The position numbers were made by a program, and so were the translations under genes. DNA of 52,228 nt from NCBI GenBank assembly GCA_034435295.1, contig DAOTYD010000072.1, positions 1 to 52,228 of the forward strand, written 5' to 3'. Positions 3,020 to 51,690 of the stretch are shown piece by piece. Under the pieces are notes generated by a model. The model was not told the origin of the DNA. It ran no database searches and worked only from the letters and a program-made list of their open reading frames with translations. Position 1 is the first letter of the stretch. Every line of letters begins with the position of its first letter. The DNA comes from Anaerolineae bacterium (GTDB lineage Bacteria; Chloroflexota; Anaerolineae; B4-G1; DUEL01).

Positions 3020-3757
3020 ATGAACGTAACGGTCGTGATCCCCACCTACAACGAGGCCGAGAACGTCGAGGCGATGGCCGAGGCGCTGTGGGGCCTGGGC
3101 ATCCCTGACCTGCACGTCCTCATCGTCGATGACGAATCGCCCGATGGGACCGGGGCCATCGCCGACCGGCTGGCAGAGGAAAACCCGGGCCGGCTGAGCG
3201 TGTTGCACCGCAGCGGACCGCGCGGCCTGGGCCGCGCCTATGTCGACGGCTTCCGCTGGGCCCTCCAGCACGGCGCCGACGCCATCGTGCAGATGGACTG
3301 CGACTTTTCCCACGCCCCCGCCGACGTGCCGCGCCTGCTGGCCCACCTCCCTGACTATGACGTCGTCATCGGTTCGCGCTATGTCAGGGGGGGGCGGACC
3401 GACGAAAAGTGGAGCTTTGGGCGGGTGCTGCTTTCGTGGTGGGCCAACTTTTACGCGCGGGTCATCCTGGGCTGCCGCGTGCGCGACATCACCGCCGGCT
3501 TCAAAGCCTGGCGGCGCCAGGCCCTGGCGGGCATCGACCTGGACTGCATTTTCTCGCAGGGCTATGTCTTCCAGGTCGAGATGATCTATGTCGCCGAGCG
3601 GCTGGGCTACCGCATCCTGGAGGTGCCCATCTACTTCGAAGACCGGCGCATCGGCCGTTCCAAGATGACCATGCCGGTCAAGTTCGAGGCGGCCTGGCGG
3701 GTATGGCAGGTGCGCTGGCGACACCGCCATCTGCAACCGCGCCACGGAGAGGTATGA
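3020..3757 (+). CDS. GT2 polyprenol-phosphate glycosyltransferase (dolichyl/undecaprenyl-phosphate mannosyl- or glucosyl-transferase type, Ppm1/GtrB/CsbB-like)
   Basis: [15 protein letters not shown].., VDDESPDGT and DCDFSHAP (DxD-type) motifs. The stop overlaps the next ATG (ATGA at 3754-3757). Confidence 0.8.
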
Positions 3758-6700
3758 TCCGCCGACTGCTTCCCACCGCCGTCGCCGCGCTCATCCTGCT
3801 GCTGCTGCCCCTGCTCCTCTTTGCCCCCGTCGCCCTGGGCAACCGCACGCTGCTTCCCGTCGACGCCCTCTTCCTCTTCGAGCCGTACCGCGCTGCCGCC
3901 GCTGAGCTGGGCGTGACGAGGGTGCAAAATGGCCTGGTTGCCGACCTGATCCTGGAAAACTATGCCTGGAAGCGCTTTATCCTGCAGGCGCTGCAGAACC
4001 ACGAGCTGCCGCTGTGGGATCCCTACATCTTTGCTGGCCATCCCTTTCTCGCCAACGGCCAGCACTCGGCCCTCTATCCGCTGAGCGTCGTCTTTTACGT
4101 CCTCCCGCTATGGCGGGCCTTTGGCGTGTTTGCCTGGCTGCAACTGGGGCTGGCCGGCCTGTGGACCTATCTCTTCGCCCGCGTGCTGGGCATCCGCCGG
4201 CTGGGCGCTCTGCTGGCCGGCATCGTCTTCCAGTTCAGCGGCTTTATGGTCGTGTCGGTGGTCCACCCCATGATCATCGCCGGGGCCTCGTGGCTGCCCT
4301 TTATCCTGGCGATGGTCGAACTGATCGTCCGCCAGCGCCCGGCGCTGGGCCAGCGACCGTCCAGCCTGCCCTGGGCGCTGCTGGGAGCGGTCGGCCTGGG
4401 CTGCCACATGCTTGCCGGGCACGCCGAGAACACCTACTTTGTCCTGCTGGTCACGGCGCTGTATGTGGCCTGGCGGCTGAGCGGGCTGTTCGTCGGCGCG
4501 CTGCGCGAGCACAGGGCCGCTGGCGCAGCGCGGCGGCTGGCGCGGCCGCTGTTCTGGCTGGCGCTGATGCTGATCCTGGGGCTGGCCCTCGGCGCGGTCC
4601 AGTTCATTCCCCTGTACGAGGTCGCGGCAGATAGCTTCCGCTCCGGCGAGGCAGCGGCGACGCTGGCGCAGGTGCGCGGCTGGGCTTATCCCCCCCGCCG
4701 CCTGATCACCTTTGGCATTCCCAACTTTTTCGGCAACCCGGCCCACCACAGTTACTTTGACCTTTTCCAGTGGCGCACCGTGCCCGTCACCACGAACGCC
4801 TACGACCACCCCATCGACAGCACCGACTGGGGGATCAAGAATTATGTCGAGGGCGGCGCCTACCTGGGACTGCTGCCATTGCTGCTGGCGGTGTTGTCTA
4901 TCGCGTATCGCCCATCGCTTATCGCTTATCGCCCATCGCTTATCGCTTATCGCAAATCACACATCGCGGCAAGCGATACGCGATATGCGATAGGCGATAC
5001 GCGATATGCCGTTCTCTTCTTCACCCTGCTCAGCCTCTTTTCCCTCGGCTGCATCTTTGGCACGCCGCTCTATGCCCTGGTCTATGCCCTGCCCTACATC
5101 AGCCAGTCGCACTCTCCCTTCCGTTGGGTCTTTCCGCTGACGCTCTCGGTGGCAGTGCTGGCGGGGTTCGGGGTCGAGGAGGTGCGCAGACGGAATGGGG
5201 CGCAAGGGGTAAGGAGTGAGGAGCAAGGGACAAAGGGCAAGGGACAGGGGACAGCGGGCAGGTGGTTTCTTCTCGGCGCGTCGCCCTCGCTGGTCAGCGC
5301 GTTGGCGGCGCTGGCGTTCTGGGGCGGCCTGCTGACGCTGGCGGGGCTGGCGCTCAGCCGGCTCTTTTTCGCCCAGATCGAGCCGCTGGTGGAGCGCCTC
5401 TTCCTCGGCCTGGCGCTGGCGCCCAACGCCTTCCCCGACCACCGCGCCTTTTATTCCTACGAGTTCAAATGGATCGCTCTCTTCGGCCTGTTGCTCGCCG
5501 GGACGGGCATCGTCCTGCGTCTCAGCCGCTGCCCGATCACCCTGAAGCGACGGCCGCTGTGGGAGTTTCTGGCGCTGGGCCTGCTGGTCGTCGATATGGT
5601 CTCGTTCGGCGCGGGATTCCACCCCGCTGTCGACCCGGCGCTGCTCGACTATACCCCGCCCGTGGTCGAATTTCTGCGCCAGGACACGACCCTCTGGCGC
5701 TATGCCACCTTCACCCCGCCCGGCACGACCAAGACGATGAACGCCAACACAGGGATGTTCTACAACCTGCAGGCCGTCAACGGCTACGACTCGCTCTTTT
5801 CGCGCCAGTACGCCGACTATATGGGCCTGATCGAGGAACAGGACGAGTTGCAGTACAACCGCATCGCCTCGTTCAGCGACTGGTCGAGCCTGGACAGCCC
5901 GCTCATGGACCTCCTCAACGTCAAGTACATCCTCAGCGAGGTCGAAATCCCCAACCCGGCCAAATACCGCCTGGTCTACCGCGACGAGTCGCTCTATGTC
6001 TACGAGAACCTGGCGGCGATGAGCCGTGCGTTCACCCTGCCGGCGTCGGCGGCGGTGGTCATGCAGGACGTGGCCACGGCGCTGCGCACGTATGACCCGC
6101 ACCAGTTTGTGGTCCTGGAGAGAGAAGCGCCAGCCGCGCCAGCCGCCCCCCAGCCGGCCACGGCAACTCCCCAGACGGTCGTCGAGTACACGATGGACCA
6201 GGTGACGGTCGACGCGACGCTGGCCGGGCCGGGCTGGCTGGTGCTGGGCGACTCGTACTTTCCCGGCTGGAAGGCGTTCGTGCGGCCACAGGGAGCCGGC
6301 CCAGAGGCCGAGCGGGAGGTCGAGATCCTCCGCGCCGACGGCAACTTTCGCGCCGTCTTTCTGGAGGCAGGCGCGTGGACCGTTCGTTTCAAGTACAGCC
6401 CCAACAGCGTCAAGGTTGGCGCCTTTGTCTCTTTCATCGCCGCGATGACGCTGCTCTTCTTGAGCGGCCTCTACCTGTGGCGCTTTTTCTACCGCGAGGA
6501 GGACGACGCCAGCACGGTGCGGCGCGTGGCCAAGAACTCGCTGGCGCCGATCGTGCTCAACCTGTTCAACCGCGCCATCGAGTTTGCCTTTGCCGCGCTG
6601 GCGGCGCGCATCCTGGGGCCGGTGGGCAACGGCCGCTTTGCCACGGCAGCCAACATCTACATCTGGTTCGACATTATCGCCAACTTTGGGCTGGACATGT

Positions 6701-7980
6701 ACCTGATGCGCGAGGTGTCCAGCGACCGCAGCCGCGCGCGGCGGCTGCTGGTCAATACGAGCGTCCTGCGCCTGCTGCTCTACCTGGCGGCGGCGCCCGT
6801 CCTGGCCGCCTTCCTGGGCGGCTGGCAGGGATTGGGCTCGCCGCTGGCCGACGAGACGCTGTGGACGGTGGCTCTGCTCTACATCGGCCTGCTGCCGAAC
6901 ACCTTTGCCTACGGACTGGCGGCCCTCTTCCGCGGTTTCGAGAAACACGAGATCCCCGCCGCCATTCAGACGGTGACGACAATTGTCAAGGTGACGCTGG
7001 GGGTGCTGGCGCTGGTCGCCGGGCTGGGCATCCGCGGCATCGCCGGCGCGTCGGTCCTGACCAACGGGACGACGCTGCTCATCCTGGCCGTGCTGGCGCG
7101 GCGGCTGATCTGGCCGCACCTGCCGCCAGCGCGGGAGCGCGTCGCCTGGCCGCTGCAGCGCCTGATGCTGGCCGAGAGCTGGCCGCTGATGGTCTCGTTT
7201 CTCCTGCAATACCTCTTCCCCGGCATCAACATCCTGCTCCTGCAGCGGCTGCAAGGCGACGCCGTGGTTGGCTGGTACGATGCCGCCCGCAAATGGGTCG
7301 ACGCGCTGAATCTGATCCCGTCGGTTTTTACCTTCGCCGTCTTTCCGGTCATCTCACAGCAAGCGGCGCATGACCGCCTCGCCATGCGCCGCACCTATCA
7401 CCTGTCGGCCAAGCTGCTGCTGATCGTGGCCCTGCCAGCGGCGGTGCTCGTCAGCCTGCTGGCGACGCCGCTGGTCGGCCTGCTCAGCGGGGCCGCCTTC
7501 CTACCCGACGGCGCCATCGCCCTGCGCCTGCTGATCTGGTCGATCCCCTTGGGCTGGATCAACAGCCTGACCAACTATGCGCTGATCGCGCTCAACCGCC
7601 AGCGCTACGTCCTGGTCGCTTCGGGGGCACGGGTCTTTTTTACCCTCGTGGCGAATCTGTTGCTGGTGCCGCGCTGGAGCTATACGGCCTCGGCGTGGAT
7701 CATGATCGGCGGCGAGTTGCTGCTGGCGATCCTCTTCTACCTCGGCCTGCGCCGCCAGACGGGGCCGGTGGCCTGGGGAGCGATTGGGGTCCGCCCTCTC
7801 CTGGCCGGCCTGGCGATGGCTGCCGTGGCCTGGCTGCTGGCTCCCGTCAGCCTGGCGCTGGCGCTGGTGGCGAGCGCGGCGATATATCCGCTCGCCCTGC
7901 TCCTCCTGCGCGCCCTGGACGCGGAGGAGCGGGCCGCGCTTTCCCCCCTGCTGCCCGCTCCCCTGCGCCGCGAACGCTGA
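3754..7980 (+). CDS. Fusion protein: YfhO-like GT-C membrane glycosyltransferase (about aa 1-920) fused to a MOP/Wzx-type polysaccharide flippase (about aa 920-1408)
   Basis: The N-terminus resembles YfhO ([23 protein letters not shown], many TM segments). From about 6510 the sequence is [38 protein letters not shown], typical of Wzx/RfbX. No stop codon lies between the two parts. The RBS is ggagagg. Two in-frame repeat tracts are inside (4899-5009 and 5202-5257). Confidence 0.7.
4899..5009. repeat. Heptamer tandem-repeat hairpin (atcgcNN x8, then inverted gcgatNN x5) inside the YfhO fusion CDS
   Basis: The left arm tatcgcgtatcgcc (4899-4912) is the exact complement of ggcgatacgcgata (4993-5006). 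Period 7 nt. It is translated as [38 protein letters not shown]. Confidence 0.85.
5202..5257. repeat. Purine-rich degenerate heptamer tract (8 x 7 nt) inside the YfhO fusion CDS
   Basis: gcaaggg gtaagga gtgagga gcaaggg acaaagg gcaaggg acagggg acagcgg, translated as [20 protein letters not shown]. Confidence 0.7.
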
Positions 7981-14529: not shown

Positions 14530-14554
14530 CAACAGGGGCGGGTGGGCGTTCGTA

Positions 14555-14800
14555 GCAGAACGCCGGCGTGGAGCCCCCCATTGCTCGGCGGGGGTCTGTG
14601 ACCCCCGCCAGTGGGGCCGCCGCGTCACAGACCCGGCGGGAGCAGGGCGGGCGAGGCATTCTATCCTTTGGCTTCGAACACCCCGGCGCAGGACAGCTAC
14701 AAGCAGTTGTCCTACGAATCAGTGTCGCAACGAGACCCTTCGCTCCGCTCAGGGTGACATGGGTTTCGCTCAGGGTGACATCGCTCTTGCTTACCAGGAG
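14555..14800. repeat. Composite REP/MITE-like element (module a inverted, module b direct, relative to the 40708-40975 locus)
   Basis: 14555-14641 is about 85-90% identical by eye to the reverse complement of 40708-40802. 14691-14785 (ggacagctacaagcagttgtcctacgaa..gtgtcgcaacgagaccc..cgctcagggtgacatgggttt x1.7) matches 40815-40975. Confidence 0.8.
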
Positions 14801-14948
14801 CGAGACCCCTCGTCTCCTTGTGCCGGGTGAGCTGCCATTCAAAGCCCTACAGGCCGAAGGCCCAGAGCGGGGTACAGGCAAGGCGGCGCCTCGCCCCTTC
14901 AGTCGGTGTGGGCAGGCAGTTACCCTCCGATGTCTCGAAGACCTCGGA

Positions 14949-14986
14949 GGGTGCTGGGCGCGGTCTCCTGACCGCGCCCAGCACCC
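14949..14986 (-). terminator. 16-bp perfect hairpin 9 nt downstream of the saccharopine-DH-like gene stop
   Basis: gggtgctgggcgcggt (14949-14964), loop ctcctg, accgcgcccagcaccc (14971-14986). There is no clear U-tract, so it is either a terminator or a 3' stabiliser. Confidence 0.45.
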
Positions 14987-14994
14987 CCATACAG

Positions 14995-16200
14995 CTACAT
15001 TTCCTTCACCCGGCAGGGAAAGTCATACTGCTCTGTCAGCGCCATGAACGGGTCGGGGTCAAAGGCCTCCGGCCCCAGCACCCCCACGCCCTTCCAGGCG
15101 CCGCTGTTGAGCAGGTCCCAGGCGATGACCGGGTTGACCGCCGTCTGCCAGACCACCGCCTGCACGCCGTACTTGCGCATGCAGGTCTCGTTATCGGCCA
15201 CCTGGTAGATATAGACCTGGCGCGGCTTGCCGTCCTTGATGCCCTTGACCCAGGTGCCGGCGCAGGTCTTGCCGAACATCTTGTCGCCCAGGTGGGCCGG
15301 GTCGGGCAGGCAGGCGGCGACCACGTCGCGCGGGGCCACCATCACCCCCTTGACGTTGATCGGCTCCTTGTTGTCCAGGCCGAGCATCTTGATCGTCTTC
15401 AGCACGCCGATGAACTGGTCGCCCAGGCCGTACTTGAAGGTGACGCGCTTGCACCTGACCCAGCGCGGCACCAGCAGCACCTCCTCATGCTCGACGTTGA
15501 CGCACTCGACCGGGCCGATCCCTTCGGGGAACTCAAAGACCTCCGGTTCGGAGAAAGGCTCGGTGGTGAACCAGCCGCGATCCTTTTCCCAGATCACCGG
15601 TGGGTTGAGGCATTCCTCGATGGTCGTCCAGATCGAAAAGTTGGGGGCAAACTCGTAGCCGCGCACTTCCAGGTTGGCCCCGTCGCGCACGCCGATCTCC
15701 TCGATCTCGTCGAAGAGATGCTTCTCGGCGTAGCGGGCAAAGACATCCGCCAGGCCTGGCTCGACGCCCATCCCCAGCAGCGCCAGCAGCCCCTTCTTCT
15801 CCCACTGTTCGGCGCGCTCGAACTGGTAGTCCCCCAACTTGACCCCGCACTGGCGATAGGGATCGGTGGGATGGGGCTGCGAGAGGGTCATGGCCATATC
15901 CATGTAGGTGCAGCCGTATTCGAACGCCGCGTCAAAGATCGCCTCGTTGAACACCGGGTCAACGGCATTCATGATGAGGTCCACCTGATACTTGCGGGCC
16001 ATATCGATGATGAGTTGCCGGTCGCTGGCGTCAATCCACTCCTCCGGGAACTTGTCTGGCATGCCCAGTTTCTGGCCCACCTCGCGGACGCGCTCGCGAT
16101 TATAGTCGGCCAGGACGACTTTCTCCACCCACGGACGGTCCCTGGCGACGACGGCGATCGCCTCGCCCACACCGCCCACACCGACAAGCAGAACCTTCAT
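14995..16200 (-). CDS. Saccharopine dehydrogenase family NAD(P)-binding enzyme (also resembles carboxy(nor)spermidine dehydrogenase)
   Basis: MKVLLVGVGGVGEAIA Rossmann start, about 400 aa, with the architecture typical of the Sacchrp_dh N- and C-domains. The ATG overlaps the symporter stop (ATGA). Confidence 0.7.
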   Translation of the reverse strand: MKVLLVGVGGVGEAIAVVARDRPWVEKVVLADYNRERVREVGQKLGMPDKFPEEWIDASDRQLIIDMARKYQVDLIMNAVDPVFNEAIFDAAFEYGCTYMDMAMTLSQPHPTDPYRQCGVKLGDYQFERAEQWEKKGLLALLGMGVEPGLADVFARYAEKHLFDEIEEIGVRDGANLEVRGYEFAPNFSIWTTIEECLNPPVIWEKDRGWFTTEPFSEPEVFEFPEGIGPVECVNVEHEEVLLVPRWVRCKRVTFKYGLGDQFIGVLKTIKMLGLDNKEPINVKGVMVAPRDVVAACLPDPAHLGDKMFGKTCAGTWVKGIKDGKPRQVYIYQVADNETCMRKYGVQAVVWQTAVNPVIAWDLLNSGAWKGVGVLGPEAFDPDPFMALTEQYDFPCRVKEM

Positions 16201-17780
16201 TTGTCACCTCGTTTCCCCAGTTGGAACCCCAGCGGATTGCGCATATTCAGCGGGTTGCCATCCAGATCGGTCATCACCTTCGGCGGGTCGATCTTCTGGG
16301 TCAGCAGGGAGACAACGATCAGCATCACCACAGAGATGACGAACGCAGGGAACGAAGCGATGTAGACCGCATCCCAGGTGGCATCCTCGACAAAGCCCTC
16401 GCAGATTTCCAGAGTGATGGGATAGTAGGCGAAGGTCAGGATCACCCAGGAGACCGTGCCGACGATCATGGAGCTGAGCGCGCCGATGTGGTTGGCCTTT
16501 TTCCAGTACATGCCGATGATGTAGGGGGCGACCATGCCGACCAGGATCGCCGTGCAACTCAGCACGGCCAGCCGGTATATTGTCGCAGCGTACAGGGCGA
16601 TGAGCAGGCTGATGATGCCGGTCACCAGCAGGCTGAGCCGCGTCAGCCAGAGCTGGGTCTTGTCGGACAGGTCGGGCTTGAAGACCTTGACGATGTTTTC
16701 GGTGAACATCGTCGCCCCGGCAAGCATAGAACTGTCGGAGGTGCTCATCAGCGCCGAGGCCAGAGCGGCGATAAAGATGGCGACCAGGAGGGGCGGCAGG
16801 TACTGCATAGTCATGGAGACCAGCACGAACTCTGTCTGCTCGACCTCCAGATCCGGGCCGATCGCGCCGTAGGCGGCCACGCCGATCAGCGGCGGAAGGA
16901 TGCCAAAGATCAGGTAGAGGATCGCCGCCAGGTAGGTCGCCTTGACCGCCACCGACTCGTCCTGGGCGGCGCAGGTGCGCTGCAAATAGTCCTGCGCCGG
17001 GATGCTGCCCAGGCCGATGGCCATCCAGGCGGCCAGGTAGTAGAAGATGCCCAGGTAGCCAGTGTACCCCAGGTAGCCCTCGTCGCGGATGGGCCAGAGG
17101 GCAAAGGGTTGCGAGACCCCCTGCGCGCCGGCCAGCCCCAGAAACTCGCTCAGGCCGCCCACCCGGCTGACGATGATGCCGAAGGTCACTGCCAGGCCGA
17201 TGCAGATGAGGAACATTTGCAGGAAGTCGAGCGCGGTGTCGGCCCACAGGCCGCCCATCATCGTGTAGAGGGTGACCACGGTGCCGACCAGGATCATGCC
17301 GGCCTGAAGCGGCCAGCCCAGGAGGACGTGGAGGATGCTCCCGCCGGCGACGATCTGCGCCGCCGTCCAGCCGAAGTAGGTGATGATCTGGATCACCGCG
17401 CCGATGATGGACATCGTCTTGCCGAAGCGGCGCTCGTAAAAGTCCATCAGCGTCAGGTAGTTGGCCCGGCGCGCCAGGCGGACGACCAGGAAGCCGGAGA
17501 GGATCAGGCACAGCGCCGCCCCAAAGGGGTCGAACACCACGCCCTGGAAGCCGAAGCGGTAGGCGCTGGAGCTGGAGCCCATCAGCGTCTCGGCGGCGAA
17601 CCATGTGGCCATGATGGAGGGCCCGGCCATCCATATCGGCAACCGCCGGCCGGCGACCACATAATCTACCGTGGTCTCAACGCGCCGCGAGGCCCAGTAG
17701 CCGATGGCCAGCCGGACCAGGAGGATGACCACGATCCCTCCCACAATCAGGCCAGCATACTCATAGGTTGGTCCTGGCAT
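16197..17780 (-). CDS. Sodium:solute symporter family (SSF) transporter
   Basis: 527 aa with about 13 TM segments. The N-terminus ..GYWASRRVETTVDYVVAGRRLPIWM.. is typical of the PutP/PanF/SglT family. Confidence 0.8.
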   Translation of the reverse strand: MPGPTYEYAGLIVGGIVVILLVRLAIGYWASRRVETTVDYVVAGRRLPIWMAGPSIMATWFAAETLMGSSSSAYRFGFQGVVFDPFGAALCLILSGFLVVRLARRANYLTLMDFYERRFGKTMSIIGAVIQIITYFGWTAAQIVAGGSILHVLLGWPLQAGMILVGTVVTLYTMMGGLWADTALDFLQMFLICIGLAVTFGIIVSRVGGLSEFLGLAGAQGVSQPFALWPIRDEGYLGYTGYLGIFYYLAAWMAIGLGSIPAQDYLQRTCAAQDESVAVKATYLAAILYLIFGILPPLIGVAAYGAIGPDLEVEQTEFVLVSMTMQYLPPLLVAIFIAALASALMSTSDSSMLAGATMFTENIVKVFKPDLSDKTQLWLTRLSLLVTGIISLLIALYAATIYRLAVLSCTAILVGMVAPYIIGMYWKKANHIGALSSMIVGTVSWVILTFAYYPITLEICEGFVEDATWDAVYIASFPAFVISVVMLIVVSLLTQKIDPPKVMTDLDGNPLNMRNPLGFQLGKRGDK

Positions 17781-17819
17781 TTCTCGCTCCTTTCTCCTAT
17801 AGTGGGTTGTTATCCCTGG

Positions 17820-19097: not shown

Positions 19098-19117
19098 AGG
19101 TCCTCCTTGGAAAGTGT

Positions 19118-19165
19118 GCAAGTATGCAAGTATGCAAGTATGCAAGTATGCAAGTAAGCAAGTGG
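19118..19165. repeat. Octamer tandem repeat (gcaagtat x4, gcaagtaa, gcaagtgg)
   Basis: Read directly. It lies 20 nt upstream (minus sense) of the aminotransferase start codon. It shares the gcaagt core with the pheT in-frame repeat. Confidence 0.9.
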
Positions 19166-19367
19166 GGCGACGGATTGGGGCGAGGGTTGGGCGCGGTGCT
19201 GCTCGTGTTCCTGGGCCAGCCGCTGGAAGAGGCGGTAAACCCGGCGGATAGGCAGCCTGGCGGCAGCGCCGCCGGTCGGACGATGTAGTTCTTCAGCGTT
19301 CTGTATTCCACGACGATCCCCTCCTGGCGATGGACGCCAGCCCACAGACAACGAACCACGCGACACG

Positions 19368-19397
19368 CTTTACGTTTTACGTTTTACGCTTTACGTT
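19368..19397. repeat. Heptamer tandem repeat (ctttacg ttttacg ttttacg ctttacg)
   Basis: Read directly. It lies about 24 nt downstream of the stop of the 19421-20734 gene. Confidence 0.85.
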
Positions 19398-22537: not shown

Positions 22538-22607
22538 GGACGTGCTGCGTGCTCCGTGTTCCGTGACCCAGGCGCCACACAACACGTACCACGCATCACG
22601 CAGTATG
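22538..22607. repeat. Imperfect hairpin built from inverted heptamer arrays (cgtgNNN x4 / cacgNNN x4)
   Basis: acgtgct gcgtgct ccgtgtt ccgtgac .. cacacaa cacgtac cacgcat cacgcag. It fills the AOR-ferredoxin intergenic gap. Confidence 0.75.
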
Positions 22608-25243: not shown

Positions 25244-25270
25244 ATCATGCTCCGTGCGGTGTACTTTGTC

Positions 25271-25340
25271 TTTCGTGTTGCGTGTTGCGTGGTGCGTGAC
25301 GCGTGCCACCACGGAACACGCACCACGCAACACGTCACCC
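25271..25340. repeat. Heptamer-array hairpin with an 18-bp stem
   Basis: gtgttgcgtggtgcgtg (25282-25298) is the exact reverse complement of cacgcaccacgcaacac (25317-25333), plus one flanking C-G pair. The arms are tgcgtgN / cacgcaN heptamers. Confidence 0.9.
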
Positions 25341-28527: not shown

Positions 28528-28556
28528 ATTATAAGAAACTCTTCCGAAAATGTCAA
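28528..28556 (-). promoter_or_regulatory. Consensus sigma70 promoter TTGACA-N17-TATAAT for the Lrp gene
   Basis: The minus strand reads cTTGACAttttcggaagagtttctTATAATacg. The -35 is at 28556-28551 and the -10 at 28533-28528. The ATG at 28495 has RBS gggggagagg. Confidence 0.75.
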
Positions 28557-28557
28557 G

Positions 28558-28584
28558 CTTTGTGTTCTTTGTGTCCTTTGTGGT
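28558..28584. repeat. Three direct 9-nt repeats (ctttgtgNN) abutting the -35 box of the Lrp promoter
   Basis: ctttgtgtt ctttgtgtc ctttgtggt, read directly. Confidence 0.85.
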
Positions 28585-33512: not shown

Positions 33513-36116
33513 ATGAAAATCCCCCTGTCCTGGCTCAAAGAATACGTCGACATCGACCTGCCCATCCCCGCCCTGGCCGAACGGCTGACGCTGGCCGGCC
33601 TGGAAGTGGAAACGGTCAACTATATCGGCCTGCCGGGCGCGGCGCTGCCGTGGGACCCCGACAAGATCGTCATCGGCGAGGTCGTCGCCGTCCATCCGCA
33701 CCCCGAAGCCGACCGCCTGGTGCTGGCCGAGGTGAACTATGGCGGCCCCGAAACCGAGGTGGTCGTCTCCGGCCCGCCCAGCCTGAAGCGGATCGAAGGG
33801 CAGAGCGGGCTGCACCTCAAAGTGGCCTTTGCCTTCGAGGGCGCCCGCCTGTGGGACCCCTATTCCGCCGAGCCGCAGATCAAGACGCTGAAAAAGTCCA
33901 AAATCCGTGGCGTCGTCTCGCGGGCGATGGTCTGCTCGGAAAAAGAGCTGGGCCTCTCCGACGAGCACGAGGACATCATCTACCTGCCCGACGACGCGCC
34001 GGTCGGCATGCCGCTGGTCGATTACCTGGGCGACGCGGTGCTCGAGTTCGACATCAAGGGGCCGTTTGCCCATCTCTACTCGGTCGTCGGCGTGGCCCGC
34101 GAGGTGGCAGCGCTGCTGGGCGTGCCGCTGCGACGCGACGCGCTGGAGGTGCTGGAGCGCCACCCGGCCGGGTTGACCGCTACCCCCTCTTTCATCGAAC
34201 TGGAGATCGCCGATCCCGACCTCTGCCCGCGCTACTCGGCAGCGATGATCCGCGGCGTGACGGTGCGCCCATCGCCGCTGTGGATGCAGATGCGCCTGCG
34301 TTATGCCGGCATGCGCCCGATCAACAACATCGTCGACGTCACCAACTATGTGATGCTCGAACTGGGCCAGCCGCTGCACGCCTTCGACTACCACGTCCTG
34401 CGGGCGCGACCGGGGGCAGAGACGCCCGCCATCATCGTCCGCCGCGCCCGCCCCGGCGAGCAGATGCGCACGCTCGACGGCGAGCTGCGCACCTTCGACA
34501 GCGAAATGCTGCTCATCACCGACGGCGGCGGGCCGGTGGCAGTGGCCGGCGTCATGGGCGGCCTGGAAAGCGAGATCACCGACGCCACAACCGACATCCT
34601 GCTCGAATCGGCCAACTTTCACTTCCTCAGCATCCGCCGCACCTCGCGCCTGCTGGGGCTGGCCAGCGAGTCGAGCGTGCGCTTTGGCCGGCGGGTCGAC
34701 CCCGAGCTGACGGTCAAAGCAGCCGCCCGCGCCGCTCACCTCATGGTCGAACTCGGCGGCGGCACGGTCGTCCCCCTCATCGGCGACCTCTACCCCGGCC
34801 GCCAGCCGCAGCGGGTCATCGAGCTCGACCCCGCCTACGTCGCCCGCATCCTGGGCATCGAGATACCGGTCGAGGAGATAACGCGCATCCTCACCTCGCT
34901 GGAGTTCGAAGTGGGCAAGGAGGCAAGTGAGCAAGTGGGCAAGGAGGCAAGTGAGCAAGTGGGCAAGTCGGCAAGTACGCAAGAACCTGCAAACTTGCAG
35001 ACTTGCAAACTTGCAAACATCCCCGCGTCTCCCCCTCTCCGCGTCTCCATTCCCTCCCACCGCCAGGACGTCACCCGCCCGGTGGACCTGATGGAGGAAG
35101 TGGGGCGCATCTGGGGCTATGACCGCTTCCCGGCGACGCTCATCCGCGACGAGATGCCGCCGCAACGGGCCAATCCTCGCCTGGAAGGGATCGAACGGCT
35201 GCGCGACCTGCTGGTCGGCCTGGGCCTTGACGAGGTCATCACCTATTCGCTGGTTGACGCCGAAGAGGAGCGTCCCTTCCATCCCCCCGCCGCGCCCTTC
35301 GACGCAGAGAGATACCTGCGCCTGCGCAACCCCCTCTCCAGCGACCGCTCCGCCCTGCGCCAGACGCTGCTGCCTTCGCTGCTGCACGTCGCGCGCAAAA
35401 ACCTGCGCTTCCTCGACCGCGTCGCCGTGTTCGAGATCGCCGCGGTCTATCTGCCGGTGGAGGGACAGACCCTGCCCGAAGAGCCGCGCCGGCTGGGCAT
35501 CGTCATGACCGGCCCCCGCGAGGAGCGTTCGTGGATCGCCGGGCAGGACCGCTCGCCGATGGGCTTTTACGAGCTGAAGGGCGTGGTCGAGACGCTGCTG
35601 GCGCGCCTGGGGGTGGAGGGGACGTTCGTTCCGCACCAGCACCCGGCTTTCCACCCCGGCCGCTGCGCCCGGCTGCACATCGGTGAGCAGACGCCCGGCG
35701 TGATGGGCGAGCTTCATCCGCAGGTGCGAGAAGCTTTCGGCCTGCCCTCCCAGCCCGTCTGCGCCCTCGAGTTCGATCTGGAGGAGCTGTTGGCCGCCGG
35801 CGACCGGGCGCGCAAGATGAAGCCCATTTCCACCCATCCGCCGGTCTACGAGGACCTGGCGGTGGTGGTGGACGAGGCGCTGCCGGCGGCGAGTGTGTAC
35901 CGGGTCATCATGCAGGCTGGCGGCGCGTTGCTCCGTTCGGCCGAACTGTTCGATGTCTACCGTGGCGAGCAGATCGGCGCCGGGCGCAAGAGCCTGGCTT
36001 ACCGCCTCACCTACCAGGCCGACGACCGCACCCTGACCGATCAGGACGCCAGCAAATTGCGCGCCAGGATCGTGCGCACGCTGGAGCGCGAGCTGGGCGC
36101 AGCGCTGCGCGGCTAG
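33513..36116 (+). CDS. pheT: Phenylalanine--tRNA ligase beta subunit (with an in-frame repeat insertion)
   Basis: MKIPLSWLKEYVD.., tRNA-binding, B3/4, B5 and FDX-ACB domains are recognisable (IPSHRQDVTRPVDLMEEVGRIWGYD; KSLAYRLTYQ). RBS aggaga is present. Confidence 0.95.
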   Translation: MKIPLSWLKEYVDIDLPIPALAERLTLAGLEVETVNYIGLPGAALPWDPDKIVIGEVVAVHPHPEADRLVLAEVNYGGPETEVVVSGPPSLKRIEGQSGLHLKVAFAFEGARLWDPYSAEPQIKTLKKSKIRGVVSRAMVCSEKELGLSDEHEDIIYLPDDAPVGMPLVDYLGDAVLEFDIKGPFAHLYSVVGVAREVAALLGVPLRRDALEVLERHPAGLTATPSFIELEIADPDLCPRYSAAMIRGVTVRPSPLWMQMRLRYAGMRPINNIVDVTNYVMLELGQPLHAFDYHVLRARPGAETPAIIVRRARPGEQMRTLDGELRTFDSEMLLITDGGGPVAVAGVMGGLESEITDATTDILLESANFHFLSIRRTSRLLGLASESSVRFGRRVDPELTVKAAARAAHLMVELGGGTVVPLIGDLYPGRQPQRVIELDPAYVARILGIEIPVEEITRILTSLEFEVGKEASEQVGKEASEQVGKSASTQEPANLQTCKLANIPASPPLRVSIPSHRQDVTRPVDLMEEVGRIWGYDRFPATLIRDEMPPQRANPRLEGIERLRDLLVGLGLDEVITYSLVDAEEERPFHPPAAPFDAERYLRLRNPLSSDRSALRQTLLPSLLHVARKNLRFLDRVAVFEIAAVYLPVEGQTLPEEPRRLGIVMTGPREERSWIAGQDRSPMGFYELKGVVETLLARLGVEGTFVPHQHPAFHPGRCARLHIGEQTPGVMGELHPQVREAFGLPSQPVCALEFDLEELLAAGDRARKMKPISTHPPVYEDLAVVVDEALPAASVYRVIMQAGGALLRSAELFDVYRGEQIGAGRKSLAYRLTYQADDRTLTDQDASKLRARIVRTLERELGAALRG
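34915..35017. repeat. Octamer tandem-repeat hairpin (gcaagNNN x9, then NNNcttgc x3-4) inside pheT
   Basis: An exact 24-nt duplication (34911-34934 = 34935-34958). The inverted arm is cctgcaaacttgcagacttgcaaacttgcaaa. It is translated as GKEASEQVGKEASEQVGKSASTQEPANLQTCKLAN. Confidence 0.9.
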
Positions 36117-39075: not shown

Positions 39076-39897
39076 ATGAATATAACAGAATTAGGCCCCA
39101 GAGAAGCCGAGTTCCTCTCCCGGCTGGCCGGCGAGGGGCGGTCGGTCTTTACCGTCAGGCAGGCGCGCCGTTTCTGGGGCAACCCGGCCTATACGACCAA
39201 CGTGCTGGGCCGCCTGGAAAACAAGGGCTGGCTGCGCCGCCTGGAACGCGGCACGTACCTGATCATCCCACTGGAGGCCGGCCCCACCCGTGACTGGTCG
39301 GAGAGCGCGCTCGTGCTCGCGCCGTACCTGATCCAGCCAGCCGCTATCGCCTATTGGTCGGCGCTGCACTTTTGGAACATGACCGAGCAGATCCCCGACA
39401 CGTTCTTTGTCCAGTCCACCCGCCGCAAGCACCGCCGCCAGATCGAGGTGCTGGGTGTGCCCTTCCGCTTCGTCACCATCCCCGAGGCCCGTTTCTTTGG
39501 CGTGGCCCAGCGCACCCTCGACGGCAAGTCGATCTACGTCACCGATCGCGAAAAGACTCTGCTCGACGCTGCCGACCGCCCCGACTTGAGCGGCGGAATC
39601 GGCCAACTGGCACACGCGCTGCGCGCGGCCTGGAGCGACGTGGACTGGCCGCGGCTCGACGAGTACCTGGCCCGTTGGGGCATGGGCAGCCTGGTCAAGC
39701 GACTGGGCTACCTGGTCGAAACGCTGGAACTGCCGCTGCCCGACCGCGAGGAGCGGCTGGCCCGCTGGCAATCGGCGCTGACCGCCGGCATCGCGCTGCT
39801 CGAAAGCCGCAGCGGTCACAGCGGCCGCATCGTGACGCGCTGGCGGCTGCGCGTGAACGTGGCCGAGACCTGGCGCGGCGGGGAGGCCGGGCCATGA
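39076..39897 (+). CDS. abiEi: AbiEi-family type IV toxin-antitoxin antitoxin / transcriptional regulator
   Basis: The N-terminal wHTH-like part is FLSRLAGEGRSVFTVRQARRF..VLGRLENKGWLRRLERGTY, and the C-terminal AbiEi_4-like part is IAYWSALHFWNMTEQIP. In-frame GTG starts at 39061 or 39070 are also possible. An extended -10 (tgctatact) is at 39027-39035. Confidence 0.7.
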   Translation: MNITELGPREAEFLSRLAGEGRSVFTVRQARRFWGNPAYTTNVLGRLENKGWLRRLERGTYLIIPLEAGPTRDWSESALVLAPYLIQPAAIAYWSALHFWNMTEQIPDTFFVQSTRRKHRRQIEVLGVPFRFVTIPEARFFGVAQRTLDGKSIYVTDREKTLLDAADRPDLSGGIGQLAHALRAAWSDVDWPRLDEYLARWGMGSLVKRLGYLVETLELPLPDREERLARWQSALTAGIALLESRSGHSGRIVTRWRLRVNVAETWRGGEAGP

Positions 39898-40631
39898 TCA
39901 GCGAGGCCGAACTGCGCCGCCTGGCGGCGCGCTGGGGCGTCGACCCGATGGTGGTCGACCTGGATTATAGCCTGGGCTGGTTCATCGCCGCGCTCTACAG
40001 CGCCAACGCGCTCGCCGATCGGCTGTGCTTCAAAGGCGGCACCGCCCTGCGCAAGTGCTATTTCGCCGATTATCGCTTTTCCGAGGACCTGGATTTTACC
40101 GCGCTGGCGCGCGTCGAACCCGACCAACTCCTGAGATGGGTCGAGCGCGCCGCGCGCTGGGCTGCGGAAGCGAGCGGCCCTGACTATCGCGCCGCCCCGC
40201 CGCGCCTGGAGGTCCTCCGCGACGAATACGGCAGCGAGAGCTACCAGGTGCGCGTCTATTACCGCGGGCCGCTGCACTGGAGCGGCGACCCGCGGGCGAT
40301 CCGTCTGGACGTGACCCGCGAGGAACGGCTGCTGCTACCGCCTACGACATCTACCGCCTGGTTCGATCCGGCGTGACGGCCGCCGACGTCGCGCCGCTGC
40401 TGGAGCAAGTTCCAGGCGCGCGGCCTGGACGTCGAGACCATGGCTGTCGAACCGCTCGCCGCCCGGCGCGCGGCCTTTGAGGACGACTGGGCGCGCCGCC
40501 TCAGTCACCTGGTGCGCGACGCCAACGCTGTGACTTTCGAGACCGCCTGGCAGACAGCCGTGACGCTGCTGCAACAGGCAGTGGAACGCCTGGGCCTGCC
40601 GCCCGACCCACAGGAGGCGAACCGCCCATGA
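39894..40631 (+). pseudogene. abiEii: AbiEii-family nucleotidyltransferase toxin, internally deleted and frameshifted
   Basis: The N-terminus is intact (CFKGGTALRKCYFADYRFSEDLDF) up to a stop at 40374. The YDIYRLVRSGVTAADVAPLLEQ segment is in another frame (from 40343). The C-terminal fragment MAVEPLAARRAAFEDDW is again in the first frame (40440-40631). It starts by ATGA overlap with abiEi. Confidence 0.65.
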
Positions 40632-40707: not shown

Positions 40708-41150
40708 CTCCCGCCGGGTCTGTGACCCCCGCCGGGCCTCCACTGGCGGGGGTCGCAGATCCCTGCCGGGCAAGGGATGCCCCACGTCGGCGTTCTGCTA
40801 CACCCCCCTGGTGTAGGACAACTGCTCGCAGTTGTCCTACGAACTGTGCGGGTCACAGAGCCGGCGGGAGCGGGGAGTCATCCGTGTCGCAACGAGATCC
40901 TTCGCTTCGCTCAGGATGACATGGGTTTCGCTCAGGGTGACATGGGTTTCGCTCAGGGTGACATGGGTGTTCGTGGCAAAAAGGTAGAGCGCCCCCCGTC
41001 CTGTTCCCGCCGGGTCTGTGACCCGGCGGCCCCCACCGGCGGCGGTCACAGGCCGCGAAATCCGTGAAATCTGTGTAATCTGTGGCCAAAAAACAGACTC
41101 CCGCCGGGCAAGGGTTGTCCCACGTCGGCGTTCTGCTCCGAACACCCTTC
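40708..41150. repeat. Composite REP/MITE-like array (modules a, b and c)
   Basis: Module a (40708-40802) equals the reverse complement of 14555-14641. Module b is the hairpin gtaggacaactgc/gcagttgtcctac (40813-40841) plus a 21-nt unit cgctcagggtgacatgggttt x3 (40908-40970). Module c (41005-41144) equals 17-43, one 68-bp unit, and 189-238 of the window start. Confidence 0.85.
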
Positions 41151-41226: not shown

Positions 41227-41300
41227 GCCGAGGTAGCTCAGCCTGGTAGAGCACCTGACTGAAAATCAGGGAGTCGCCAGTTCAAATCTGGCCCTCGGCA
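41227..41300 (+). tRNA. tRNA-Phe (anticodon GAA)
   Basis: Complete cloverleaf read by hand: acceptor gccgagg/cctcggc, D arm gctc/gagc, anticodon stem cctga/tcagg with loop ctGAAaa, T arm gccag/ctggc with ttcaaat, and discriminator A. The 3' CCA is not encoded (the next bases are cct). Confidence 0.95.
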
Positions 41301-48344: not shown

Positions 48345-48354
48345 GGGGAAGATT

Positions 48355-48420
48355 CTCGCTTCTCGCTTCTCGCTTATCGCTTATCGCGTATCGCGTATCG
48401 CGTATCGCGTATCGCGTATT
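48355..48420. repeat. Heptamer tandem repeat (ctcgctt x3, atcgctt x1, atcgcgt x5) flanked by a 30-34 bp direct duplication
   Basis: The repeat was read directly. The flanks 48321-48354 and 48421-48450 are identical except for a 4-nt indel (gaca), and both contain the ccat that is the PIG-L start codon. Confidence 0.9.
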
Positions 48421-48490: not shown

Positions 48491-48731
48491 GCGCGGACGT
48501 CCCGTCCGCCGCCCTGGGAGCGCGGATGTCCCGTCCGCCGCCCTGGGAGCGCGGACGTCCCGTCCGCCGCCCTGGGAGCGCGGACGTCCCGTCCGCGCCG
48601 TCCGCGCTGCCGGCGGGCGGGGACGCCCGCGATCCCAGGAAACAGGGACGTCCCGTCCGCCGCCCTGGGAGCGCGGACGTCCCGTCCGCGCTGTCCGCGC
48701 TGCGGCGGGCGGGGACGCCCGCGATCCCAGG
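48491..48731. repeat. 29-nt head-to-tail tandem repeat (about 3.6 copies) ending in two long imperfect hairpins
   Basis: The unit gcgcggacgtcccgtccgccgccctggga starts at 48491, 48520, 48549 and 48578. Hairpins cctgggagcgcggacgtcccgtccgc / gcgggcggggacgcccgcgatcccagg lie at about 48571-48638 and about 48663-48731. Confidence 0.85.
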
Positions 48732-51622: not shown

Positions 51623-51690
51623 AAAACGGCTAATCGCTTATCGCATATCGCTTATCGCTTATCGCTTGTCGCTTGTCGCTTGTCGCATAA
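51623..51690. repeat. Heptamer tandem repeat (atcgctt/atcgcat x5, gtcgctt x2, gtcgcat)
   Basis: Read directly. It shares the unit family with 4899-5009 and 48355-48420. A partial inverted copy cagcgataagcgat is at about 51917-51930. Confidence 0.85.

Follow-up and report, generated by a model that had tools for sequence, protein, structure and literature searches.

Heptamer arrays translated in two loops of a YfhO::Wzx fusion protein, and the array population of its Anaerolineae clade

The YfhO::Wzx gene and its two heptamer tracts

In contig DAOTYD010000072.1 of an Anaerolineae bacterium (Chloroflexota; assembly GCA_034435295.1), a gene encoding a YfhO::Wzx fusion, a large polytopic membrane protein, contains two tracts of heptanucleotide repeats that are translated as part of the protein. 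The contig was analyzed over 52,228 nucleotides (nt), hereafter the window, and the gene and its tracts are as follows.

3754 to 7980, + strand: host gene, encoding a polytopic membrane domain (YfhO-like, GT-C type) fused to a Wzx/MOP-type flippase domain, 1408 amino acids (aa) (open reading frame (ORF), Pfam/NCBIfam, protein record)
4899 to 4968, + strand: left arm of a hairpin, eight clean plus two degenerate (T)ATCGCN units, encoding S/P-LIAYR repeats (Tandem Repeats Finder (TRF), pattern search, translation)
4973 to 5009, + strand: right arm of the hairpin, five GCGATAN units, encoding DTRYAIG repeats (TRF, inverted repeats, folds)
5202 to 5257, + strand: heptamer array, purine-rich and decayed (unit RCARGGG), in the following predicted cytoplasmic loop (loop 2) (lag-7 identity, fresher arrays in homologues)

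At period 7, TRF reported 7.9 copies of TATCGCN in the left arm (4899-4953), which two degenerate units extend to 4968, and the same arm was also recovered at period 21 (2.6 copies, 97% match), a higher-order repeat. Beyond a short turn, the right arm comprised 4.9 copies of GCGATAN (4973-5006), the reverse complement of the left-arm unit. The complete hairpin (4899-5009) measures 111 nt, or 37 codons; positions 4899-4912 (TATCGCGTATCGCC) pair perfectly with their exact 14-nt reverse complement at 4993-5006, and the hairpin arms of 34 nt are 91% complementary. Three successive ATCGCNN units were matched 20 times in the window against an expectation of 0.01. Folding of the 131-nt hairpin region as RNA gave -59.6 kcal/mol (z = -6.7), and the same region folded as DNA gave -36.7 kcal/mol (z = -5.9). 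The second tract begins ~190 nt downstream of the hairpin and consists of eight units (GCAAGGG, GTAAGGA, GTGAGGA, GCAAGGG, ACAAAGG, GCAAGGG, ACAGGGG, and ACAGCGG), just the last three of which were detected by TRF at default stringency. Its lag-7 identity was 0.73 vs ~0.3 to 0.4 at other lags, a value reached by none of 20,000 shuffles (p < 5e-5); the tract is a decayed heptamer array, for which "degenerate" is apt. An earlier reading of the DNA, made from sequence only, had described a hairpin of ATCGCNN units with a 14-bp perfect outer stem and a degenerate purine-rich tract of eight units, both in frame and giving 7-aa periodic peptides. TRF agreed on the hairpin, the lag-7 statistics on the purine-rich tract, and translation of the stop-free ORF on the peptides (SLIAYRP..., DTRYAIG..., and GVRSEEQ...). 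Both tracts comprise at least three head-to-tail units of 5 to 11 nt and are longer than chance allows, as is characteristic of heptanucleotide long simple sequence repeats (SSRs). In an Rfam scan of the window at gathering score, the sole match was the tRNA gene at 41227-41300, and none fell at the arrays.

The likely start codon is the ATG at 3754, which overlaps the stop of the upstream glycosyltransferase gene and yields 1408 aa, the same length as the protein recorded for the contig (P0121); both tracts are free of stops inside this 3754-7980 ORF. The gene had been called a YfhO::Wzx fusion from its translation, and both Pfam domains were recovered above gathering score, YfhO as a partial match (PF09586; E = 7.8e-10, 38.2 bits, cut-off 28.5) and the Wzx-type Polysacc_synt as a full match (PF01943; E = 1.2e-25, 91 bits, cut-off 28.2); the fusion is conserved, being kept in >100 Anaerolineae proteins. 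Alignments showed that the tracts fall in two hypervariable segments, loops 1 and 2, between near-invariant blocks (...(L/F)LA, loop 1, ...QSHSPFRW...LAGFG, loop 2, LL..SPSLV...AFWGG). Hydropathy placed helices on either side of each loop, and both loops are basic (5 and 7 Lys + Arg in loops 1 and 2, respectively, vs 2 Asp + Glu). AlphaFold also returned flanking helices at both segments, with predicted local distance difference test (pLDDT) scores <50 at residues 385-414 and 487-499; the model, derived from a 30-sequence alignment, is weak (mean pLDDT 58, predicted template modeling (pTM) score 0.55) and was used for the low confidence between helices. Searching the PDB by sequence for the YfhO part returned no match. 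Alignment, hydropathy, and low pLDDT thus agree with the earlier placement of both tracts in loops between membrane helices. The YfhO part has a soluble C-terminal domain of 261 aa, which is normally extracellular. Back-counting helices from this domain and from a KRR loop places both loops on the cytoplasmic side, in a predicted topology that rests on hydropathy, charge, and a weak model. Diversification of surface loops against phage was rejected as an explanation, since both loops come out cytoplasmic. Two more hot-spot segments occur in the same protein, one in a linker near aa 790 and one in a Wzx loop.

Loop arrays in homologues, variation between strains, and the reading frame

Homologous loci were gathered from representative genomes (80) and metagenomes (79). 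In the clade of the window (~60% identity or more), loops 1 and 2 very often carried 7- or 8-nt arrays of differing units, including TCACGTT, GACCACG, GTCATAC, ACGCAAC, CTCAGTC, CAGCAAAT, and AAGCGAGA in loop 1 and GCAGGAG, GGCAAGA, GAGGCAG, GCAGAGGA, GCCATTC, CCCAATC, and TCCGCAG in loop 2; (CCCCAAT)n arrays occupied loop 2 of L048, L077, L032, and L033. Among the first 82 loci, 18 had arrays in loop 1 and 10 in loop 2. Loops that were not scored as periodic still displayed decayed 7-nt phasing, as in L004, and blocks of identical neighboring units (e.g., in L029 and L007) fit replication slippage. Deep branches (~50% identity) had non-periodic loops of similar length without arrays. Rather than the same peptide being encoded by homologues that lack a DNA repeat, which would have spoken against a repeat-driven insert, loop peptides tracked each DNA repeat, and by these comparisons the loop peptide follows the DNA repeat, not the reverse.

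Array density outside the gene was 1.50 per 10 kb at loci with loop arrays vs 0.20 at the others (7.5-fold, p = 2.6e-7). Across 1.86 Mb of related loci, period 7 was the commonest, with 260 arrays; periods 6, 8, and 9 had 64, 86, and 96, respectively. The loop arrays are a local symptom of a genome-wide, lineage-specific property, and what the sequence-only reading had presented as a peculiarity of this gene is instead one case of a population of 7/8-nt arrays that characterizes genomes of this Anaerolineae/Thermoflexales-like clade.

Three proteins from independent assemblies (P0123-P0125) were at least 99.86% identical and carried the same tracts, and the DNA of one of these assemblies (L083) had one substitution between the tracts (5033) and none inside them. 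These identical in-frame tracts answer the concern that the frame might be broken in the true sequence; it is no assembly artefact. Coding arrays were likewise identical in four to five assemblies of ~99.8% identity. At strain level (99.5 to 99.9% nucleotide identity, ~50 kb compared), three indels were found, all in tandem repeats: a gain of 24 nt (three units) at the octamer array at 19116 in L165, a strain 99.5% identical, and a gain of 21 nt at 14745, one extra CGCTCAGGGTGACATGGGTTT unit, in both L164 and L165; at the 14745 repeat, a sister lineage is one further unit apart. Among the strains, no change was seen in the coding hairpin or in the other hairpins. In the sister lineage, whose version of this protein is 95% identical (aa), the coding hairpin's right arm was longer by 21 nt, exactly three more units, and this was the only indel >1 nt in 14.3 kb compared (95.8% identical); substitution was also much faster in both loops than elsewhere in the protein. 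Unit-number polymorphism, which had been proposed for the tracts, was hence observed and by whole units, as three more heptamers in the sister lineage and three more octamers in L165.

Most indels of at least 3 nt relative to the sister lineage touched arrays or other tandem repeats. The ACGTAAA array (19365-19397) differed by 11 nt, and the hairpin at 22541 was conserved, its unit number unchanged, across the ~5% divergence. An 81-nt block (25254-25334), comprising a complete CGTG/CACG palindromic array and a tail, was present in the window lineage (four assemblies) and cleanly absent from the sister lineage and a more distant relative (L168, L170, and L167 compared), where the genes lie 15 to 30 nt apart. 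By this comparison, the whole 81-nt hairpin was gained or lost in one step.

No frameshift was found at the loops among 156 related loci in a tblastn frame check, with alleles read from consensus assemblies that rare length variants could escape, and ORFs were intact in 118 loci. The single multi-frame tblastn match, in L155, was rejected as a frameshifted allele, being the loop peptide matching unrelated arrays. In silico, adding or removing one or two units led to a stop at aa 411-491, a truncation that would remove half of YfhO and all of Wzx, while changes of three units preserved the full length. Ribosomal bypass or removal of the hairpin was also rejected, since the frame and the absence of stops were kept in all homologues despite their variable length, as expected if the arrays are translated.

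Arrays elsewhere in the window and in unrelated contigs

The window contained 10 arrays of period 7 and five of period 8, compared with ~0.3 to 0.65 per shuffled window and ~0.4 at period 7; most of these arrays are situated in 5' leaders. All seven non-coding arrays sit upstream of co-directional genes, several ending a few bases before the Shine-Dalgarno (SD) sequence. In several arrays of the window, a direct array precedes its inverted copy (25274-25339, 22541-22600, and 34909-35018), a palindromic arrangement found in 9 of 29 adjacent array pairs.

48353 to 48419, - strand: single-arm array of the ATCGC unit family, reading GCGAUAC in mRNA sense, in the 5' leader of a minus-strand gene
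51629 to 51686, - strand: single-arm array of the ATCGC unit family, ~85 nt upstream of a minus-strand gene start
25254 to 25339, - strand: palindromic heptamer array, CGTGNTG x4 plus CACGCAN x4 (CGTGTTG / CACGCAA), in an intercistronic spacer
22541 to 22600, - strand: palindromic CGTG/CACG heptamer array filling an intercistronic spacer and ending 13 nt before the SD
19112 to 19163, - strand: octamer array (CUUGCAUA in mRNA sense) whose end lies 6 nt ahead of an aminotransferase gene's AAGGAGG SD
34909 to 35048, + strand: octamer hairpin, GCAAGTNN x9 plus CTTGCAAA x4, then CCGCGTCT x3, in frame in pheT

The octamer hairpin of pheT (33513-36113, + strand) is the second in-frame case. It adds ~34 aa (EVGKEASEQVGKEASEQVGKSASTQEPANLQTCKLANIPASPP) to a loop of the B5 domain. 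This loop measures 5 to 10 aa in solved structures and in ordinary homologues, and its length varies among Anaerolineae relatives; PheT is an essential protein.

Two further copies of the ATCGC unit had been reported between genes. Both were present, but the copy at 48353-48419 forms a 5' leader and is not plainly intergenic. It is flanked on both sides by a copy of AAAGTGTGCCATGGGGAAGATT (22 nt identical, ~31 nt if a 3-nt gap is allowed), a sequence that includes the minus-strand gene's ATG. A TATAAT box precedes the upstream copy by 7 nt, and this copy now begins a 19-codon upstream ORF (MAHFTSPIRDTRYAIRDTR, then a stop). This layout suggests that the minus-strand gene may formerly have had a leaderless mRNA. 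Such duplicated flanks were seen at this array only among 292 arrays. Adjoining it is a GC-rich tandem repeat at 48491-48731 (GCGCGGACGTCCCGTCCGCCGCCCTGGGA..., periods 29 and 93 nt, 6.7 copies), which was considered as a clustered regularly interspaced short palindromic repeat (CRISPR) locus and rejected, having no spacers.

Unrelated metagenome contigs (L155-L161) carried the same unit families as long palindromic arrays, all intergenic and with up to 12+31 units, including ATCGCNN palindromes, GCAAGTNN palindromes, and CACGCAN arrays. The long palindromic arrays are located as follows.

L155, 1665 to 1851, 3187 to 3291, and 4717 to 4841
L156, 3006 to 3190
L160, 3042 to 3354
L161, 258 to 354

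Some of the arrays in these contigs end at the SD or start codon of a gene, as at an IscU-like gene (L156) and at rnc (L160), where the last unit supplies the ATG.

The window also holds repeats of other kinds. The 21-nt tandem repeat CGCTCAGGGTGACATGGGTTT occurs at two loci (14746-14785 and 40906-40973). A dispersed element of ~68 nt resembling repetitive extragenic palindromic (REP) sequences, found at 27-191, 41023-41095, and 14543-14700, is made up of a GC-rich palindrome (CCGGCGGCCCCC..GGGGGTCACAG), after which come three 9-mers, GAAATC(C/T)GT, and CCAAAAA. The tRNA gene at 41227-41300 adjoins a REP-like element, and the sister lineage (L001) lacks ~370 nt of REP-like repeats at 14543-14950. 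On the minus strand, a 9-mer array (28533-28582; GACACAAAG x2.8) stands directly upstream of a perfect TTGACA-17-TATAAT promoter of an AsnC-type regulator gene, and this promoter region shows several small indels relative to the sister lineage. In otherwise collinear DNA, a non-orthologous replacement distinguishes 16200-17819 of the window, encoding an SSF-family transporter, from 14254-15903 of L168 in the sister lineage, encoding an amino-acid permease. An AbiEi/AbiEii toxin-antitoxin pair at ~39076-40376 was assigned from Pfam matches on the identical strain contig L162 (16608-17908).

Origin of the arrays and comparison with known systems

We consider it probable that the two tracts are slippage-prone microsatellite arrays tolerated in permissive cytoplasmic loops and kept in frame by purifying selection. 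This explanation builds on observed features, namely the anatomy of the repeats, their in-frame status, their position in loops, their recurrence in homologues, the link to genome-wide array load, and the 21-nt step. Arrays of 7/8 nt would grow and shrink by replication slippage across the genomes of the clade, inverted arms being made by strand switching, and they would persist only in unconstrained sequence, mostly 5' leaders and intercistronic spacers and a few permissive protein segments. The two short, basic, poorly conserved cytoplasmic loops of YfhO::Wzx may be such sinks. Because a 7-nt unit does not make up whole codons, the essential downstream part stays in frame only when the array changes by three units at a time (21 nt, 7 aa); purifying selection would filter array length to multiples of 21 nt and remove variants that create stops, and the 21-nt super-period of the left arm (97%) may be the footprint of that filter. 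The arrays would then be translated as a 7-aa periodic filler peptide, presumably neutral.

Several regularities weigh against slippage in tolerant sequence as a full account. The cores ATCGC+NN, GCAAGT+NN, CACG+NNN, and CCAATC+N turn up again in different organisms and at sites that are not homologous, and long ATCGC arrays keep the core with positions 6 and 7 near random, a contrast that array picking inflates and that is suggestive only; neither the recurring cores nor their constancy is predicted by neutral slippage. All nine ATCGC palindromes were arranged as 5'-(ATCGCNN)n(NNGCGAT)m-3', single arms beside start codons read GCGAUNN in mRNA sense, and arrays stopped at the SD, 13 to 16 nt before the start codon, in at least six independent cases. 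The 81-nt palindrome that differs between lineages in one step is of a kind that stepwise slippage does not account for, and the 22- to 31-nt duplication around the 48353 array likewise stands apart. Low-frequency frameshift variants could also hide behind consensus assemblies. The regularities could be united if a dedicated system of this clade wrote or read palindromic 7/8-nt arrays (cores ATCGC, GCAAGT, CACGC, and CCAATC), generating whole hairpins in one step, as for the 81-nt gain at 25254-25334 and the duplication-flanked array at 48353, perhaps by templated break repair or strand-switch synthesis, supplying strand-specific, SD-abutting RNA elements to 5' leaders, and yielding new loop peptides as a by-product. 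We regard such a system as unlikely; if real, it would be a natural generator of loop innovation in conserved, even essential, proteins (YfhO::Wzx and PheT).

With about as little likelihood, the arrays might be functional RNA or DNA hairpins, sequence- and strand-specific and recognized by a dedicated factor. They might then serve, for example, as 5'-leader stabilizers, as RNase III or other processing sites, or as binding arrays for a translational regulator, and the YfhO::Wzx copy might act on its mRNA (stability, processing, or a pause after a membrane helix) or be a tolerated stray. The conserved cores with hypervariable positions 6 and 7, the invariant palindrome arrangement, and the SD-abutting ends, which involve different unit families, speak for functional elements, as do the location of 7/7 non-coding window arrays upstream of co-directional genes, the constant unit number of the 22541 hairpin over ~5% divergence, and the very stable stem; a precedent has been proposed for TAACTGA heptamers upstream of start codons (PMC4679880). 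Within this gene, however, the hairpin structure is not conserved, L002 keeping one arm only and many homologues having a single array, another unit, or none, and unit numbers and sequences turn over between close lineages. The window gave no Rfam match at the arrays, no candidate factor was identified, and orientation and SD-abutting could instead reflect selection halting expansion into functional sequence.

Neither a mobile element nor a phase-variable switch explains the tracts well. That the 111-nt hairpin is a mobile palindromic element inserted in frame, of the type of MITEs (miniature transposable elements with inverted repeats) or Rickettsia palindromic elements (RPEs), is very improbable. 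Like RPEs, it is a palindromic in-frame insert of ~100 nt in a loop (PMC10969869), tolerant sites of unrelated proteins are occupied in frame (the YfhO::Wzx loops and the PheT B5 loop), the ATCGC family recurs here and in other genomes at several sites that are not homologous, the 81-nt palindromic array shows clean presence or absence between sister lineages, and one array (48353) has a flanking direct duplication. Copies nevertheless share the 7-nt unit only, with arms of 4 to 31 units and neither central loops nor ends conserved; BLAST of the 111-nt hairpin and the 81-nt indel against the 1.9 Mb of collected sequence returned unit-level matches only and no donor, and no transposase is associated. 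A search for target-site duplications in the 50-nt flanks of 292 arrays found only 48353 above the null, with none at 4899/5009 nor in the other arrays (291/292), and a transposon-like origin as a general rule was accordingly rejected. A contingency locus, in which gain or loss of one or two heptamers would switch YfhO::Wzx off and make envelope glycosylation or export phase variable, had been raised by the sequence-only reading and is very improbable and unsupported on the present data. In favor of such a switch, the unit is not a whole number of codons, the in silico changes of one or two units truncate the protein at aa 411-491, the array accounts for the only indel >1 nt in the 14.3 kb compared with the sister lineage, intergenic arrays vary between strains, and envelope polysaccharide genes are typical phase-variable targets. 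Yet the sole length difference seen is the in-frame gain of three units, four to five independent assemblies of ~99.8% identity share identical arrays, and 0/156 related loci are frameshifted at the loops. Variant positions also interrupt the units, the resulting 21-nt super-period favoring in-frame slippage, and the same kind of array lies in the essential pheT, where on/off switching would be lethal. A tolerated, frame-filtered microsatellite is the probable explanation of the single locus, while the lineage-wide pattern holds unexplained regularities.

Heptanucleotide repeats have been known since the 1990s-2000s as a statistical oddity of bacterial genomes, in the form of short tandemly repeated repetitive (STRR) sequences and long SSRs, and their origin and function are unsettled. 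This clade offers clean material, combining several unit families, palindromes, and natural presence/absence and unit-number variants across lineages 92 to 99.9% identical with repeated in-frame occupation of the same loops in an envelope protein and in the essential PheT. The origin of arrays, translational regulation, and the tolerance of proteins for repeat filler become testable in metagenomes and in cultured Thermoflexus-like isolates. The arrays also matter for annotation. They inflate apparent protein divergence and create spurious "repeat proteins" in databases, they are likely trouble spots for assembly and gene calling, and tblastn with the loop peptide matched unrelated intergenic arrays.

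Among known systems, the STRRs of Calothrix and Nostoc offer a close likeness, being dispersed heptamer arrays in filamentous bacteria with no known function; together with the G-rich heptamers of Nostoc and Xanthomonas and the TAACTGA repeats of Beggiatoaceae, they are the arrays in the literature that come nearest. Mazel et al. in 1990 reportedly described the STRR heptamers CCCCA(A/G)T, TT(G/T)GTCA, and CAACAGT in heterocystous cyanobacteria. The (CCCCAAT)n arrays of L048, L077, L032, and L033 have the same heptamer as classical STRR1 and the Nostoc GGGGATT repeats. The tracts of the window fall outside the STRRs, with a unit of ATCGCNN and an Anaerolineae-like host, and unlike STRRs, which are described as intergenic, they are in-frame loop inserts. 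GGGGA(T/C)T in Nostoc and cyanobacterial heptamer repeats have been described (PMC4692102).

Heptamer arrays directly upstream of start codons are shared with the marine Beggiatoaceae, in which TAACTGA direct repeats are concentrated at that position (MacGregor 2015, PMC4679880). MacGregor 2015 (PMC4679880) also considers their translation inside ORFs, and translational regulation is proposed there and unproven. The Beggiatoaceae repeats have a single unit and almost no inverted copies (one indirect repeat), whereas several families, frequent palindromes, and in-frame copies in conserved genes occur here. RPEs, intragenic MITEs of ~100 to 150 nt and the nearest parallel for the in-frame outcome, place palindromic DNA in frame in housekeeping genes (PMC10969869) and similarly add peptide at structurally tolerant positions of unrelated genes; they are discrete, however, with a family consensus over the whole length, in contrast to variable-unit arrays without conserved ends, center, or target duplication. 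As in contingency loci, a non-triplet SSR lies in an ORF and a one-unit change truncates the product, but no out-of-frame alleles were seen, and the arrays are interrupted, with a 21-nt super-period, and stable among near-identical strains.

The arrays also match the heptanucleotide long SSRs, for which a prokaryotic excess was reported and polymerase slippage proposed (Mrazek, Guo and Shah 2007, as summarized in PMC4679880 and PMC4692102). As in those repeats, 7-nt arrays are far above chance, mostly intergenic, and length-polymorphic between relatives, and among the GGGAATC repeats of Xanthomonas, too, two arrays in inverted orientation are on record. Unlike described long SSRs, these arrays have a Chloroflexota (Anaerolineae) host, several unit families coexist with octamers, palindromic arrays are common (9/29 adjacent pairs), and non-triplet arrays are repeatedly translated in conserved proteins, which is disfavored according to the literature (PMC4679880). 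For Chloroflexi, Anaerolineae, or Thermoflexus, literature searches on tandem repeats, including heptamers, returned nothing relevant. Set against these systems, the present case has its array nature in common with the known heptamer arrays and its in-frame outcome in common with RPEs. It stands apart by its host phylum, by several unit families and octamers existing side by side, by how often palindromes occur, and by the repeated translation of non-triplet arrays at the same loops of conserved proteins.

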